A DNA stretch of 55,186 bases. It comes from Candidatus Geohabitans tengchongensis. Lineage in GTDB: Bacteria; Sysuimicrobiota; Sysuimicrobiia; Sysuimicrobiales; Humicultoraceae. Position 1 is the first letter of the stretch, and every line of letters begins with the position of its first letter. Position numbers: made by a program. Location: assembly GCA_031459625.1 (NCBI GenBank), contig JAVKIH010000015.1, positions 1 through 55,186 of the forward strand. Reading direction: 5' to 3'. Below are positions 18,001 to 24,000 of this stretch, piece by piece.

Positions 18001-21000
18001 CCGTGACCCAGATCGGCCTGTCTCCGACCCCGAAGCGGGTCAGGGTGGACCGCACGTAGTCCATCTTCGCCTGCATCCACTCCGGGCGGTAGACGTGGGC
18101 GGTCATCACGTCGAAGTTCGGCCCCGCCGGGTACTGCGGGTCGCTCAGGATGTCTTCCAGGAAGTCCGGGTCGAGCAGCCTGCCGCCCAGGGCCAGCCCG
18201 CCCAGCACCACCCGGGCGCGCGGGTTGGCGCTGCGGACGGCCTGGGCGGTCACCTGGAGCCAGTAGGCGTACTGCTGCGGCGTGCCCCGCCAGGCGCCCA
18301 GCAGGTCCGGCTCGTTCCAGACCTCCCAGTCCAGCACCTGCGGGTATTGCCCGACGAAGCGGGCCACGAACTCCCGCCAGGCCCGCTCGTCCCGGGGCGG
18401 GTAGAAGATCACCTCTTCTGCGGGAGTGCCCGGCGGCGCGGAGGAGTTCCACGCCGGCGGCCAGCCCAGCTGCACGAGCAGCCGCAGCCCCAGGCCGGCA
18501 GCCTCTGAGACCACCTGCGTCCAGATGGCGTCGTTCCAGTCCACCGGCCCGGTGGGCTGGACGCGGCTCTGCCCGACGGCGAAGCGCACGTACCCGATGC
18601 CGGCCTGACTGGCCAGCTGGAACGCCTGGGGGGTCACCGGAGCCGGGAAGCCGGCGCCGGTGGAGACCCCCCAGACGGGATCCCCTGGCGGCTGCGGGAG
18701 CGCGCCGGCGCTCCCGCAGCCGCCCGCCATCAGCGTGGCCATCACCAGCAGACCGGTGCGAATGCCGTCCGCCGTCAGACGCCAACCCACCGCTCTCCTC
18801 CGTCGTGTACCGGCCCGACCTCCCTGTCCGAGACGTCCGAGGGACGGGCAGGGTTTAGGGCGGAGAGGCTGAAAGGCCGGACGGGCCTCGACCGGAGGGA
18901 ATCCCGTCAGGAGGGTTTGTCGGCCGGAGGGACCGGGCCCACCACCCGGCGCAGCAGCGAGGAGGCCGGACCGAAAGCCTCGGCCAGCAGCTGCTCCAGG
19001 GCGTGCCGCTCGCGCTCGCCCTCCGCGTGGCGCGCCGAGGTCAGCAGGTCGCGCCGGCCGCCGTTGCCGGGCTCGAGCAGCCACCGCCCCTCCACCACTT
19101 CCCGCTGCACCACGCCCGCCTCGACCAGGGTCTCGAGCGCCGCCTCCACGGCGGGCAGGTCGAACCCGGCCGCCTGGAACGCCGCCGCGACCCCCTCGTC
19201 CGGCCAGCGCAGCGGGCCGGGGAGGTCGCGCAGGACCCGGTAGGCGGTGGCCAGGCGGGCGCGGGAGGGGAAGCGCGTCTCGAGCTGCGCGCGCCGCCGG
19301 GCGGCGTCGTCGAGGTGGTAGGCCAAGACGACGGTGGCCACACCGCCGTCGAGACCGGCGAGCGCGGCCGCCTCGGCGAGGCCCGCGCGGGTGAAGGGGA
19401 GGGTAGCCACGACGACCTGGCGGACGTCGGCGGGGGCAAGCGCTTCCGCAAGTCCCGCGGCCACGAGCACGGCCACCTTGCCATCCTGGAAGAGCTGGGC
19501 CACCACGCGGCGCACCCGCGGCGGGAGCCCCGGGTGGACGTAGGCGACGGACCGTCCCGCCTCGCGAAGGCGCCGGGCCAGCGCGACCGCTTCCTCAGGC
19601 GTGGCGGCCGCCACGACGGTCGGCCCTCCCCGCTCCGGGAGGGCAGCCAGCAGCGCCTCCCGGTCCGCACCGCGCCGGTCCACCAGCCGCAGGTTGGTAC
19701 GCCGGTAGCCGTCGTCGAGGAGGACCGCCTCCGGGCCCCCCGGGACCGGCGCCTGCGCCCACCAGAAGGTGAGGACCGGGGGAGACGCCCTGCCGGGCGA
19801 CAGCGGCAGCGGGGCAGCGGCGTCGTCGTCCACCACCTGGACCACGCCCCGCGGCGGCAGCAGGTCTCCCTCCCGGGCGACCCACTCGGCGCTCGCCACC
19901 ACGATCTCCGCCGTGCCGCGGGCCAGCGCCCGGGCCAGCCGCTGCCGCGCCCGGAACGACAGCGCCCCGTGCGCCGCGTCCACGCGCAATCCCACATCGC
20001 GCAGCACCGGCCGGTACATCTCCACCCAGGCGTCTACCTGGCTGGCCAGCGGCAGCACCAGCAGGACAGGCGTCCCCTGCCGCGCCGCCAGGGCCGCCGC
20101 CGCGGCGACCGCGGTGAGAGCGCCCCGCCGGCCCGGGCCGAGCGTCGTGACGGCCGGCCGCCCGGCCAGGGCGGCGGCCACCACCTGGCGCTGCAGGTCG
20201 CGGAAGGGGCGGCCGCCCTGAAGGTGGATGCGCAACTGCTCGAGCACGGCCCCCTCGTCGAGCTCCGCCCACCCCTTCCACAGCGGTGCGTCCGCCGGCG
20301 ACGGGTCCTCGCGCTGGATGTAGATGTTGAGGCCGAAGGGCCGGTCGCCGCCGCCGGTGCGCTGGGCGGCGGTGGCAGTGTAGCGCGCACCGGCGTCTAT
20401 CGACGGGGCCAGGCGGGCGGCCAGCGCGGCGCTGACGTACCCCAGGCGCTCCCCTCCGTCACGGCAGACCGCCACGGCGTGCGGGTCGTGCGGGTTGGCC
20501 GGCTCCCGGACCAGGCGCAACGGCTCGCCGGGGCGCACCTGCGCCACGAGCGCCTGCCGCCCCTCGAAGGTGACCCCCGCCACCTTGGTGTAGAAGGCTC
20601 CGGCGTCCTCGATCCCCCGCAGCGCCGGCCCCAGGTAGTCGTCGGCCCGGGCGAAGAGGCGCTCCAGGAGCAGCCGGCCGTCGGCCAGCACCGCCTCCAG
20701 GTCGAGGCCCGGGATGGCCAGGTCGCGCACCACCAGCGCCGCCCGCTCCTCCTCCCCCCAGCGGTCCACCTCCACCGTGCAGGCCAGGTCGAGCGGCGTG
20801 CCCGTGAAGGCCAGCACCTCGGCGGCATCGCCGCGGGCAAAGCCGATGGCCTCGACCGCGTGGCGGCCGTCGGTGAGGGTGAGGCGCAGGTGCCCCTCCC
20901 CCACCACCCGGGTGGCCAGGGGCCGGGCGCCGCGGACCACGAAGAGCGGCTCGGGGTGGCCGGCGCCGAAGGGGCCGAGGCGCTCCACCTCGCGCGCCAG

Positions 21001-24000
21001 CTGCGGGGTCACGTCCGCCAGCGCCACCTCCGCGTCGACGACGAGCTGGGGCAGGAGGTCCTCCGGGCGCAGGCGACGCCCGGCTTCCCGGAGGAAGCGC
21101 TCGCGGAAGGCGGGGATGCGCTCCGCGTCCACGGTGAGGCCCGCTGCCAGCGCGTGGCCGCCGTAGCGGGCCAGGAGGTCGGCGCACGCGCCCAGCGCCT
21201 CCACCATGGAGAGGGCCTCCACGCTGCGGGCGGAGCCGCGTCCTACGCCCTCCTCCACCGCAATCATCACCACCGGCCGGAGGTACCGCTCGCGCAGGTG
21301 CGCGGCGACGATGCCGACGACCCCTGGGTGCCACCCATCCGCGGCCAGCACGAGGGCGGGTGCCTGGGTCAGCCCTTCCGCCTCGACCCGCGCCACCGCC
21401 TCGGCCAGGACGCGGTCGCACAGCTCCTGCCGTCGCCGGTTTTCAGCGTCGAGCGCCGCCGCCAGCGCCGCGGCCTCCTCCGGGTCCTCCGTGGTGAGCA
21501 GGCGCACCGCCACCGCGGCGTCGGCCAGCCGCCCGGCGGCGTTGAGCCGCGGGGCCACCGCGAAGGCTACGTCGCGCGGCCGCACCGGGGCGCTCAAGCC
21601 GGCCTGGCGCAGCAGCGCGGCCAGCCCCAGCGTCGGCGCCGTCCCCAGCCGGGCCAGGCCGTGGCGCGCCAGCAGCCGGTTGTCTCCCACCAGAGGCACG
21701 ACGTCGGCGATGGTCCCCACCGCGGCCAGGTCGAGGAGATCCCAGGGTTCGTCCGCGCCCAGCAGGTGCGCCACCGCGCGGACCGCCTGGAAGGCCAGAC
21801 CGCAGGCGGCGTACGGGGTGACCGGGGGCTGGTCGCGCCGCTTCGGGTCGACCACCGCCAGCGCCTCGGGGAGGGCGGGTCCGGGCTCGTGGTGGTCCAG
21901 GACGATCACGTCGAGCCCTACCTGGCGGGCCAGCGCCACCTCGGCCAGCGCGGTGACGCCGCAGTCGACGGCCACCAGCACCCCCGGCCCGCCCAGCCGG
22001 GCGATGGCCCCGGCGTGCAGGCCGTACCCCTCCACCGCCCGTCGGGGGACGAAGGCCTCGACCGCGCCACCCAGACGGTGCAGGCCACGCACCAGGATGG
22101 CCGTGGCGGTGACCCCGTCGGCGTCGTAGTCGCCGTAGACGATCAGGCGCTCTCCCGCGCGCACGGCGCGGGCCAGGCGCGCGGCGGCGACCTCCAGGTC
22201 GCGCAGCGCCGCGGGGGGCGCGAGGTCCGCGAGCGGAGCGGCCAGCCACCGTTCCGCCGCCGCCGGGTCGGTGATGCCACGGGCCACCAGCACGCGCGCG
22301 GTGGGGAGGGTCAGGCCGAGGGTCTCGGCCAAGCGTGCGGCCGCCGCCGGGTCTCCCGGCCGGAGGATCCAGCGGGCGGGAGGGCGGAGCGCCGGCACGC
22401 CGGTCAGGAGCGGGGCAGGCGCTGGGTCTCGTCCGCCGGGGCGGCCATGGCGGGGCGCTCGCGTTCCCCCTCGCGCCGCTCCAGCTCGCGCAGTCGCGCC
22501 TCGGCGGCGCGCAGGCGGCGGCGCAGGTCGCGCTGCGCCAGCAGGCTGACGACGTAGACCACCAACCCTCCGACCACGGCGGCGACGATGGTGGCCAGGG
22601 CCAGCGAGGTCCCGGCGGACCAGAACAGGAAGGTGAGCACGACCGGCTGCGGGTTCTGCACGGCGAAGACCGTGACCGCCACCATGAGCAGGAGGGCCAC
22701 GATCAGCAGACCCTGCACGCCCTCACCTCCCTCCACGGCGGCGCGTCCCGGCCGGTGTCCCGGCGCGGCGGCATGCCCTCACCGGCGCCGCCGTCGGCGC
22801 TGCCGCGCCGGTTCCGTGTGCAGGCGGGCGGGCGCAGGCGCCGCCCCCACCGCCGCCGCCTTCGCCGCTGGGGGCGTCTCCACGGCGGGCCGGGCCGCCG
22901 GAGACCGCCCGGCCCGCCGCTCCGCCCACAGGTGCCACTCCACCAGCAGCGGGCTGGCCACGAAGATGGAGGAGTACGTGCCCGTGACCACGCCGGCCCC
23001 CAGCCCGAAGATGAAGTCCCGCAGCGTCGGCCCACCGTAGAAGTACAGGATGAGCAGGGCGATGATGGCGCCGAAGCCGGTGGTCAGCGAGCGGACCAGC
23101 ACCTCCAGGATCGACCGGTTCACCAGGCGCGGGAACGGCTCCCGCGTGCGCAGCTGCTGGTTCTCGCGGATGCGGTCCAGGATGACCACCGTGTCGTTGA
23201 TGGAGTAGCCCACCACCGTGAGCAGCACGGCCACGAAGGAGGAGTCCACCGTGCGGCGCGTGAGGGCGTACAGCCCCAGGACGATGAGCAGGTCGTGGAC
23301 CAGCGCCACGTCGGCGGCCAGGGCGAAGCGCACCGACCGGAAGCGCCAGGTGATGTAGAGGACCTGCAGGGCCAGCCCGACCAGGACCGCCACCACCGCC
23401 TGCCGCCGCAGCTCCTGGCCGATGCGGGGGCCGACGCGCTCCGCCCGCAACACCTGCGCGCCGCCGTACTGGGCGGAGAAGGCGCGCTGGAGGCGGGCCA
23501 CCTCGGCCTCCTCCAGGACGCGGGTGCGGATGAGCACCTCGCGGGGCCGGTCCCCGGCCTTCTGGATCTGCGCCTCCTCCAGCCCGAACCCACCCAGGGT
23601 GGCGCGCACCTCCGCCAGCGATGCCTCGCGCCCCAGCTGGAGGTCGAGCAGGGTCCCGCCGGTGAAATCGATGCCGAAGTCGATCCCCCAGGCGGCGATG
23701 CCCACTAGCCCCGCGACGATGACGAGCGCGGAGAGGAGGTAGCCCCAGCGCCGGTTGCCGATGAGGTCCCAGGTGCGCACGGTCCTCCCCTACAGCCCGA
23801 AGCGCAGGTATCGGTCGAGCGGCGGGCGCGCCGCCGTGTCGACCAGCACCCGGGTGACCAGGATGGCGGTGACCATGCTGATGAGCACGCCCAGGAAGAG
23901 CGTGGTGGCGAAGCCCTTGATCGGGCCGGTGCCGAGCGCGAAGAGCACGGCCGCCCCCACGAGCGTCGTGACGTTGGAGTCGAGGATGGCCGACCAGGCC

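Follow-up and report, generated by a model that had tools for sequence, protein, structure and literature searches.

The only recJ gene of Candidatus Geohabitans tengchongensis specifies a single chain in which a RecJ nuclease core is followed by a HIRAN domain and a RecQ-like module that, judged by its motifs, is very probably a pseudo-helicase with a dead motor. The gene is one open frame for 1163 aa at 18907-22398 on the minus strand of the window (the whole stretch of 55,186 nucleotides that was analysed), and it is the housekeeping recJ and the phylum's single recJ. Its product scores 473.8 against the TIGR00644 recJ cut-off of 396.9, and its Pfam matches are DHH (85-229), DHHA1 (348-435), RecJ_OB (454-559), HIRAN (600-695) and Helicase_C (921-985). 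With a model of the C-terminal 463 aa (pLDDT 88.6, pTM 0.89), these bear out the claim of an earlier note that RecJ, HIRAN and a RecQ-fold module share one polypeptide. A single public contig, possibly from the source sample, covers the entire ORF with zero letter differences and zero gaps; its gap-free match and the single frame at 34/34 phylum loci rule out a frameshift or assembly chimera as the origin of the fusion. No sign of expression was seen: the single metatranscriptome run with the stretch is stored as contigs whose depth is flat across 11.5 kb, so that they may derive from DNA, and the run may represent the source sample. Third-position GC is very high in the recJ fusion genes compared.

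Table 1. The recJ fusion gene, the parts of its product and its neighbours, in window coordinates
Feature	Coordinates	Strand	Characteristics or basis
recJ fusion gene, the genome's only recJ	18907..22398	-	1163 aa, GTG start
DHH and DHHA1 nuclease core, aa about 32-435	21094..22305	-	GDYDADG, DCG, DHH, D232, SARS and GGH intact
RecJ OB fold, aa 454-559	20722..21039	-	PF17768, E 3e-23
Linker, aa 560-599	20602..20721	-	alignment of phylum sequences
HIRAN domain, aa 600-695	20314..20601	-	PF08797, alignment to HLTF
First RecA-like lobe, aa about 725-895	19714..20226	-	motif I GPGRRG, motif II VVDDD, motif III lost; predicted catalytically dead
Second RecA-like lobe, aa about 896-1035	19294..19713	-	motifs IV, V and VI (arginine fingers) lost
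Winged helix and terminal helices, aa about 1036-1155	18934..19293	-	model and fold search; without Zn-binding cysteines
secD and secF, upstream	22779..25271	-	usual recJ locus; neighbour annotation
relA/spoT, downstream	15407..17626	-	usual recJ locus; neighbour annotation

In the model the module has a RecQ-like fold. RecQ-family cores make up all the Foldseek matches listed and the top six VIA-align matches for the C-terminal model, the two lobes match RecQ structures with Z up to 25.8 (rmsd 6.3, 355 aligned), and their best sequence match is also RecQ; the scores of the window protein are under both family cut-offs (TIGR00614, 22.3 against 219.8; TIGR01389, 28.1 against 640.2). The earlier note had reported a degenerate Walker A, and the motif is indeed lost (its residues are G754-P755-G756-R757-R758-G759, where the earlier numbering was one too low), but alignment shows the damage to be wider, extending to Walker B, motifs III and V and the arginine fingers, so that all ATPase motifs are gone. 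An intact Walker A GK[ST], Walker B DExH or set of motif VI arginine fingers occurs at 0/34 phylum loci, which represent 26 genera and every one of the 7 families, and in none of 70 of the 71 homologue hits of the window protein; the four GK[ST] strings among those hits sit at about 925 and 1103, away from motif I. This makes the case for a pseudo-helicase stronger than first claimed. In the intact relatives described below, K759, E858, Q1009, R1013 and R1016 are present in 76/76 aligned sequences, and none is among the top residues listed for the 34 degenerate ones.

Erosion in the phylum sequences also affects motif Ia, and the motif IV arginine is retained in only 14/34 and the motif V threonine in 10/34. 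The Zn-binding four-cysteine part of RQC was not found, there being no cysteine in aa 700-1163 (the median for the region is 1 cysteine in both the degenerate and the intact sets), nor was an HRDC domain, for which the window protein has no Pfam match and no residues left to hold one. Other positions are well kept. D907, R909, Y953, H955, L958, P959 and R963 of lobe 2 are invariant, as are the surface-type basic residues R909, R963 and R1046 together with a Y-x-H-x-G-L-P loop. R963 of the window protein aligns to E. coli RecQ R275, presumably a contact with the DNA backbone; R246 and T293 of RecQ are likewise presumed DNA contacts.

The pseudo-helicase appears to be under purifying selection. 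Pooled dN/dS, from 5 close pairs by a simple counting method on genes of very high third-position GC, is 0.34 for lobe 1, 0.29 for lobe 2 and 0.30 for the winged helix against 0.21 for the core; the HIRAN value for intact pairs is void, several of those genes being without HIRAN. With RecJ-core identity matched at 48-56%, lobe 1 identity is 26.6% among degenerate and 55.8% among intact sequences, lobe 2 35.1 versus 58.5%, whereas the winged helix holds (36.6 versus 40.7%) and HIRAN (56.2 versus 48.1%) and OB (49.0 versus 40.4%) are better kept in the degenerate set. Lobe 1 is the fastest-drifting part and may be a mere spacer. Both lobes are full length across the 7 families, with lobe 1 unscored in one sequence of genus g28.

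The catalytic D/H residues of the RecJ core are 100% retained in the 34 degenerate and 76 intact sequences, the site is of active type, and a 5′-3′ single-strand exonuclease is predicted. RecJ by itself resects 5′ overhangs, and in D. radiodurans its tail boosts nuclease activity (PMC4846377). Linker residues R580, L581, F582, R584 and Y588 are kept in 94-100% of phylum sequences. HIRAN, at 56.2 against a PF08797 cut-off of 24.7 (E 3.2e-15), also appears intact by alignment: N635 and D638 of the window protein are the counterparts of HLTF N91 and D94, two positions conserved in 31/34 and 34/34 phylum sequences. H637 aligns to HLTF Y93, a position that varies between H, R and Y (H in 17/34), and the HLTF Y72 position falls outside the alignment. 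HLTF HIRAN binds a single-stranded dinucleotide and needs N90/N91 for function (PMC4666394). HIRAN is degenerate in genus g28, and seems dispensable in the fusion family since it is missing from 20/72 intact loci with RecJ and motor in one frame.

Homologues had been thought limited to the phylum and the fusion new to it. Neither holds. Among the 71 hits is one intact helicase, P0073, and from it a large family of RecJ-HIRAN-helicase fusions was reached, with all helicase motifs present; its members are found in Bacillota, Coriobacteriia and Vulcanimicrobiota and occupy the same secDF-recJ-relA locus. It is from this widespread fusion that the phylum's form descends. The relA/spoT gene is close to the fusion gene at 34/34 phylum and 75/80 intact-form loci, and secF at 31/34 and 38/80. 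The intact motors score 166-199 bits, below the TIGR00614 cut-off, and separate from standalone RecQ in a quick tree; by these sequence measures they are a RecQ-like subfamily of their own. The phylum sequences form one side both of that tree and of a RecJ-core tree, in which (root not inferred) they are nested among intact forms, and this phylogeny indicates a single origin of the degenerate form in the phylum. Separate capture of a standalone recQ is ruled out by the locus and signatures common with the intact family and by the tree. A literature search found no paper on the RecJ-HIRAN-RecQ-like fusion.

Among 48,161 chains the top fold match of the tail is the S. aureus RecJ C-terminal domain (PDB 8Y30 residues 634-756; Z 9.8, rmsd 5.7, 120/143 residues aligned, identity 12%), the sole chain at Z 8 or more, with the next match at Z 7.0. 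It covers only the lobe 2 end and winged helix. No RecQ winged helix is among the 50 fold matches listed for the tail, and Foldseek with the tail alone listed MarR-type winged helices only, none of them reaching E 0.001. PF10141 matches 6/32 aligned relatives (best E 6e-07; P0244 over cut-off) and does not match the window protein itself. Shorter RecJ-OB-lobe 2-winged helix forms are P0291 and P0266, with P0341 so assigned by Pfam and length; a wider search for one-lobe forms gave only 4 proteins. The literature search found no paper on 8Y30. The dead fusion sheds light on how the RecJ tail of Staphylococcus and Bacillus may have arisen, the series from intact through dead and one lobe to winged helix only being a possible origin of that unexplained domain, whose structure is now solved.

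RecJ and RecQ are usually taught as separate partners. As the earlier note had it, this genome (94% complete) has no RecQ over the TIGR00614 cut-off and encodes RecF, RecO, RecR and RecA. RecQ is over cut-off in only 3/94 phylum genomes. That the fusion stands in for RecQ is nevertheless ruled out, a true RecQ occurring alongside the intact fusion in 24/40 genomes. The reported absence of AddAB is correct for a tandem pair, there being one PF12705 match in the genome, but misleading, as an intact UvrD-helicase/PD-(D/E)XK-nuclease gene adjoins recA-recX and sbcDC-like genes. The UvrD-nuclease is present in 90/94 phylum genomes and, beside recA, probably accounts for most double-strand-break resection, so that the phylum's likely break-resection enzyme is a gene other than the fused recJ. 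Genus g28, without normal HIRAN, is also without it. Other helicases in this genome are PcrA, two of SftH/MrfA type, Lhr and RecG; NurA was not found in the 94% complete assembly.

What the tail does is perhaps best read, by somewhat better than an even chance, as DNA targeting, with RecJ aimed at DNA ends, gaps or forks without ATP. The ancestor would be an old RecJ-HIRAN-helicase-winged-helix fusion, whose RecQ-like motor probably still works in many Bacillota and Coriobacteriia; at the base of the phylum, probably CSP1-3/Sysuimicrobiota, the motor would have lost ATP binding and hydrolysis with the fold retained. RecJ would trim 5′-ended single strands, HIRAN would grip a nearby 3′-OH, for example across a nick or gap or on the nascent strand at a stalled fork, and the dead lobes and winged helix would bind the single/double-strand junction ATP-free. 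Through these grips the tail would aim the nuclease and hold RecJ on DNA during gap widening for RecFOR-RecA loading, and real unwinding, if any, would come from PcrA, the SftH/MrfA-type pair, Lhr or RecG. In RecQ itself the helicase domain takes up the 3′ single strand in a positively charged channel, and the winged helix grips the duplex (PMC6180126). Counted against DNA targeting are the loss of residues of the DNA-binding motifs IV, V and Ia, the rapid drift of lobe 1, the variable HIRAN Y93 position, the degenerate HIRAN of genus g28 and the lack of HIRAN at some intact loci.

The erosion of motifs IV and V would suit a protein-docking platform, in which the main role of dead motor and winged helix is to recruit RecJ to forks and gaps by holding on to the SSB tail or to a partner helicase, be it PcrA, one of SftH/MrfA type or the UvrD-nuclease. 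Invariant non-basic D907, P1044, E1100, L1118 and E1126 could form an interface, the D. radiodurans RecJ C-terminal domain binds HerA (PMC4663267) and the SSB tail (PMC4846377), and genus g28 lacks normal HIRAN and UvrD-nuclease alike. This is a minority possibility by analogy, since arginines are frequent among the retained residues and the identified neighbours in the window include no gene for a partner helicase. The sequence match to Deinococcus/Thermus RecJ ends at the OB fold, and no such RecJ chain is among the 50 fold matches listed for either model (C-terminal 463 aa or tail), which speaks neither for nor against a link between the tails. On another view only HIRAN and the winged-helix tail matter, and the lobes would be relics that persist as a folded spacer while the protein shortens towards a Bacillus/Staphylococcus-type RecJ. 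This would fit the halved lobe 1 identity, the shorter forms and the S. aureus match, but seems improbable given full-length lobes across 7 families, dN/dS about 0.3, and a near-invariance of P755-G756-R757, H810-G811 and the lobe 2 loop beyond folding needs alone.

P755, G756 and R757, retained in 82-91% of phylum sequences with T to P as a fixed swap, and the first Walker B aspartate, kept in 24/34, might point to a reshaped P-loop that binds nucleotide or a DNA 5′-phosphate without hydrolysis, as an allosteric switch on the nuclease. With the adenine-binding glutamine in 15/34, lysine in 0, arginine fingers gone and P-G-R lost altogether in several sequences, this is very unlikely. The self-contained RecQ-RecJ resection machine first proposed, replacing RecQ as the phylum's presynaptic end-processing enzyme, drew on the rarity of RecQ, the presence of RecFOR and the RecQ-like fold; it is scarcely credible now, given a dead motor and the phylum-wide conservation of a separate helicase-nuclease, and the coexistence of RecQ with intact fusions also speaks against it.

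A wider, tentative proposal, with the odds somewhat against it, is that across a large share of Gram-positive-type bacteria RecJ started out as nuclease and helicase in one chain, equipped with a 3′-end sensor, and that the motor then decayed several times independently. This phylum would have frozen a middle stage, its dead SF2 motor having become a junction clamp that works without ATP and, together with HIRAN, directs RecJ to nicks, gaps or stalled forks, and Bacillus/Staphylococcus tails would be the last remnant. If true, recombinational repair in bacteria would include a pseudo-helicase with a role of its own. HIRAN is found here inside a bacterial core repair enzyme, the intact and dead fusions are a ready protein pair in which RecQ-like binding is separable from ATP-driven unwinding, and annotation files fusion proteins as plain RecJ.

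Compared with bacterial RecJ (TIGR00644; D. radiodurans 5F54, S. aureus 8Y30, T. thermophilus 2ZXO), the window protein has the same DHH-DHHA1-OB core with all catalytic motifs, and the same secDF-recJ-relA locus, but is ~600 residues longer through HIRAN, two RecA-like lobes and winged helix. Its tail has the fold of the Staphylococcus/Bacillus-type C-terminal domain (PF10141), though S. aureus RecJ, at 757 aa, is too short to hold HIRAN or both lobes. The HIRAN resembles that of HLTF/Rad5 in its PF08797 score and N91 and D94 positions, and differs in the varying Y93 position, in its bacterial source and in its partners, a nuclease and a dead SF2 motor in place of a SNF2 translocase and RING. 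RecQ helicases (E. coli 1OYW, C. sakazakii 4TMU, WRN, BLM, RECQL4/5) likewise have a two-lobe fold then a winged helix, with the ATPase motifs, Zn-binding cysteines and, in many members, HRDC that the window module lacks; WRN carries a 3′-5′ nuclease, whereas here the fusion is to a 5′-3′ nuclease, and in contrast to the RecQ and RecJ pair of the RecF pathway both elements are in one chain. The intact fusion, filed in databases as RecJ with no family name, is alike in domain order, length (about 1200 aa), locus and the marks motif I arginine, R900-D907-R909, P1044 and S1121-E1126-G1127; there Walker A, DExH and motifs III, V and VI are invariant, and here all are lost phylum-wide.

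The open frame of the fusion gene encodes 1163 residues with Pfam matches to DHH, DHHA1, RecJ_OB, HIRAN (residues 600-695; 56.2 bits against a cut-off of 24.7) and, weakly, Helicase_C (residues 921-985). The NCBIfam RecJ model scores 473.8 on the protein, where the cut-off is 396.9, and the RecQ models of that collection reach only 22-28 bits. For the last 463 residues the predicted fold is two RecA-like lobes followed by a winged helix (pLDDT 88.6, pTM 0.89). With this model Foldseek yielded RecQ-family cores throughout among the matches listed, and the top six of the 48,161 chains compared by VIA-align are RecQ-family cores, with Z from 25.8 to 19.5. 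These results bear out the earlier note's description in outline, a RecJ, a HIRAN domain and a RecQ-fold region in one frame, and the observation is real. Motif I is degenerate, as had been claimed, and reads G754-P755-G756-R757-R758-G759 with no lysine, but the residue numbers had been given one too low. The RecJ core and HIRAN are each single-copy in the source genome, occurring in the fusion gene alone, and the frame is covered with zero differences by one public contig that may share the source sample.

Close by, a glycoside-hydrolase-like ORF has a called start that runs into the end of recJ and probably lies too far upstream; the ORF is present at none of the 34 other phylum loci. A family B polymerase is close to the fusion in seven of 34 phylum loci, and a putative 360-residue ORF, for which there was no Pfam, NCBIfam or strong Atlas match, is seen in 13 of 34.

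Coordinates of the fusion gene, its neighbours and other genes of the source genome (G000; C, contig)
Feature	Location	Strand	Remarks
RecJ-HIRAN-RecQ-like fusion	window:18907-22398	-	
Glycoside-hydrolase-like ORF	window:17738-19084	-	Cellulase/GH39 profiles; between recJ and relA
Putative ORF	window:25317-26399	-	between polymerase and secD
Family B DNA polymerase	window:26332-28584	-	upstream of secD; NF004416 415 bits, below cut-off 516
Tandem class II (D/K/N) tRNA synthetases	window:6215-9399	-	after hisS; GAD domain in one, not the other
recA, recX, UvrD-type helicase-nuclease, sbcD-like, sbcC-like, in order	G000:C23:41300-49929		L107
Single-chain UvrD/PcrA-type helicase, 1,000 aa	G000:C23:43089-46247		C-terminal PD-(D/E)XK nuclease
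TIGR03817-type DEAH helicase	G000:C5:58273-60651		L101
TIGR03817-type DEAH helicase	G000:C34:16661-19156		L102
uvrB frame, 1364 aa	G000:C12:9099-13190		L106; intein-like matches in first half

Within the phylum Sysuimicrobiota the region from HIRAN to the end is matched in 91 of 94 genomes (53 of the 54 good ones), genome G022 matching only at E 3.7e-4, and 90 of the 94 have recJ, always in a single copy, whole or fragmented. The unpublished genomes G016 and G024 are counted in these tallies. Of 34 phylum loci, drawn from 26 genera and from each of the 7 families, none retains an intact Walker A, DExH or motif VI. An alignment set the window protein and 33 of these loci (one partial locus was dropped), together 34 degenerate rows, against 76 intact rows. 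Every intact row (76 of 76) has the Walker A lysine, the Walker B glutamate, the glutamine of motif VI and the two arginine fingers; in the degenerate rows assorted residues stand in their place, and motifs III and V are likewise gone. The absence of the Walker A lysine, to which the earlier note drew attention, holds and is accompanied by loss of Walker B and motifs III, V and VI. RecJ catalytic residues are invariant in degenerate and intact rows alike. Judged by these motifs, the motor is dead phylum-wide. HIRAN too is degenerate in the three genomes of genus g28 (G081-G083; loci L136, L137 and L138; 94-99% complete), which have the most eroded RecJ lobes.

Further degenerate or one-lobe RecJ fusions (P0212, P0231, P0288 and P0326, with P0266 and P0291 as the one-lobe forms) lie outside the phylum clade, which suggests that the motor has decayed repeatedly and independently. 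A FastTree of 45 RecJ cores, for which no root was inferred, places 15 phylum rows together (100) among intact forms. Four other proteins, degenerate or shortened, each fall in a place of their own, and strong branches force at least two of these placements.

Among 71 homologues of residues 575-1163, which carry database labels such as Armatimonadota bacterium and ANGP1, one, P0073, has all helicase motifs. The labels and the single-order structure of the phylum agree with CSP1-3/Sysuimicrobiota (PMC11604079). A search with its C-terminal part gave, among 7,997 proteins scored, 1,425 at E 1e-20 or better, a number that may include unrelated RecQ-like helicases; HIRAN, DEAD and Helicase_C are present in all 120 of the matches listed and, as read by eye, DHH in all except four. 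Selenihalanaerobacter, Orenia, Phosphitispora, Peptococcaceae and Coriobacteriia are named among those listed. Thermincola (locus L032) also has an intact relative. An intact-motor profile run against species genomes confirmed at least 565 relatives among at least 598 candidates, and of these 80 loci were retained: 54 from Actinomycetota (45 of them Coriobacteriia), 18 from Bacillota, two from Vulcanimicrobiota, two labelled Bacteroidota and four unplaced. As they were located via motifs V and VI, this set is intact partly because of the way it was chosen. RecJ and motor share a single frame in 72 of the 80, with HIRAN missing from 20 of those 72. The locus is common to the phylum fusion and the intact one, relA being near the gene at 34/34 phylum and 75/80 intact loci, and secF at 31/34 and 38/80, respectively. 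The window fusion is a member of a larger, mostly intact family, and is best seen as the phylum-wide pseudo-helicase variant of an unstudied family of RecJ-HIRAN-helicase fusions. A literature search of listings and opening lines of abstracts, with few subscription journals in its range, showed no paper that treats a fusion of RecJ with a helicase, intact or dead, and the available part of PMC11604079, on CSP1-3/Sysuimicrobiota, mentions neither RecJ nor RecQ. Bacterial HIRAN is known fused to phosphoesterases or nucleases (PMC4666394, in the part available), and so the RecJ-HIRAN join may already figure in the original HIRAN domain paper.

At a RecJ-core identity of 48-56%, and for pairs that are not independent of one another, identity is 26.6% for degenerate versus 55.8% for intact forms in lobe 1, 35.1% versus 58.5% in lobe 2, 36.6% versus 40.7% in the winged helix, 56.2% versus 48.1% in HIRAN and 49.0% versus 40.4% in the OB domain. 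Pooled dN/dS for five close, non-overlapping degenerate pairs is 0.34 in lobe 1, 0.29 in lobe 2, 0.30 in the winged helix and 0.21 in the core, and for 13 intact pairs 0.20, 0.13, 0.21 and 0.16, ratios that are probably inflated by the high third-position GC (0.89-0.96). The dead motor region is relaxed, yet not in free decay. Residues G803, H810, D907, R909, Y953, H955, L958, P959, R963, P1044, R1046, E1100, L1118 and E1126 are invariant in all 34 degenerate rows, and R963 aligns with R275 of E. coli RecQ, which presumably touches the DNA backbone. The RecQ numbering was checked against Ser245 and Lys248 in the accessible part of PMC6180126. HIRAN residues N635 and D638 align with N91 and D94 of HLTF; of the 34 rows, 31 retain the former and all 34 the latter. 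The position matching HLTF Y93 is variable among phylum rows.

RecF, RecO and RecR were all detected in the source genome, as the earlier note had stated. Its proposal of a one-polypeptide resection machine is very unlikely, since the motor is dead. A separate RecQ accompanies an intact fusion in 24 of 40 genomes (hand-chosen from the 80 intact loci, completeness not given), so that the purpose of the fusion is not RecQ replacement and the substitute reading was rejected. A PF12705 nuclease is present in 39 of those 40, by eye often as tandem AddAB-like pairs. In the phylum RecQ is above cut-off in three of 94 genomes. Two of the three matches, L014 (G066:C17) and L015 (G039:C1), are in frames of about 1,800 residues and therefore belong to larger multi-domain proteins, not plain RecQ. 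In the UvrD-nuclease of the source genome the motifs of both helicase and nuclease are intact, as are its four cysteines. The solved structures that it matches best are those of PcrA and UvrD, followed by chain B of 6PPU/6PPR, entries for mycobacterial AdnAB, and by AddA. No tandem partner subunit was found, the genome having a single PF12705 match. Its identity is 63-80% across the 90 of 94 phylum genomes that carry it; it was not found in the three of g28, and is a candidate one-subunit AddA/AdnB-like resection enzyme. NurA had no match in the source genome. Further helicases there are PcrA-type, RecG, Lhr-type, one Hel308-like and two matching TIGR03817, presumably of SftH/MrfA type, one of which is head to head with the Lhr-type gene.

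An active-type RecJ, a conserved HIRAN, a RecQ-like fold without any ATPase motif and purifying selection form the established basis for considering mechanism. The tail may bind DNA without ATP, HIRAN holding the 3′ end and the dead lobes and winged helix being seated on the junction in RecQ fashion (compare the accessible part of PMC6180126), while RecJ would trim the neighbouring 5′ strand, enlarging gaps or processing stalled forks for RecFOR. A simple clamp is made less likely by the motif IV arginine and motif V threonine being mostly lost, with retention in only 14 and 10 of 34 degenerate rows. The main rival is that the tail may serve to dock SSB or a helicase, for which Deinococcus RecJ provides a precedent in the parts available of PMC4663267 and PMC4846377. 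On its own RecJ can resect 5′ overhangs, and blunt or 3′-tailed ends require RecQ (PMC4846377, same part), so such ends would call for the UvrD-nuclease or for a helicase acting in trans.

TIGR00614 gives 166-199 bits on three intact fused motors, below its cut-off of 219.8, and 15 standalone helicases are above it. In a rapidly built tree of 70 motors, with long branches and uneven composition, one branch (100) sets off the 15 standalone RecQs and another (100) the 16 phylum rows, and the two groups are not sisters. The fused motor is RecQ-like but not RecQ: it shares the two-lobe fold, but the Zn-binding cysteine set and HRDC were not found in it by sequence, Pfam or alignment, and the models score below cut-off. 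PF10141, the profile of the S. aureus-type RecJ C-terminal domain, has no match in the window protein itself and is matched by six of 32 aligned relatives (best E 6e-07; P0244 above cut-off). Modelled alone (pLDDT 92.5), the last 143 residues best match the S. aureus RecJ C-terminal domain (residues 634-756 of 8Y30; Z 9.8, rmsd 5.7, 120 aligned). No other chain reaches Z 8, and the second-ranked row has Z 7.0. Though a Z of 9.8 is modest for a helical domain, the match is to the same protein family and the same chain end, and it links the fusion tail, with the same fold at 12% identity, to the C-terminal domain of Staphylococcus/Bacillus RecJ.
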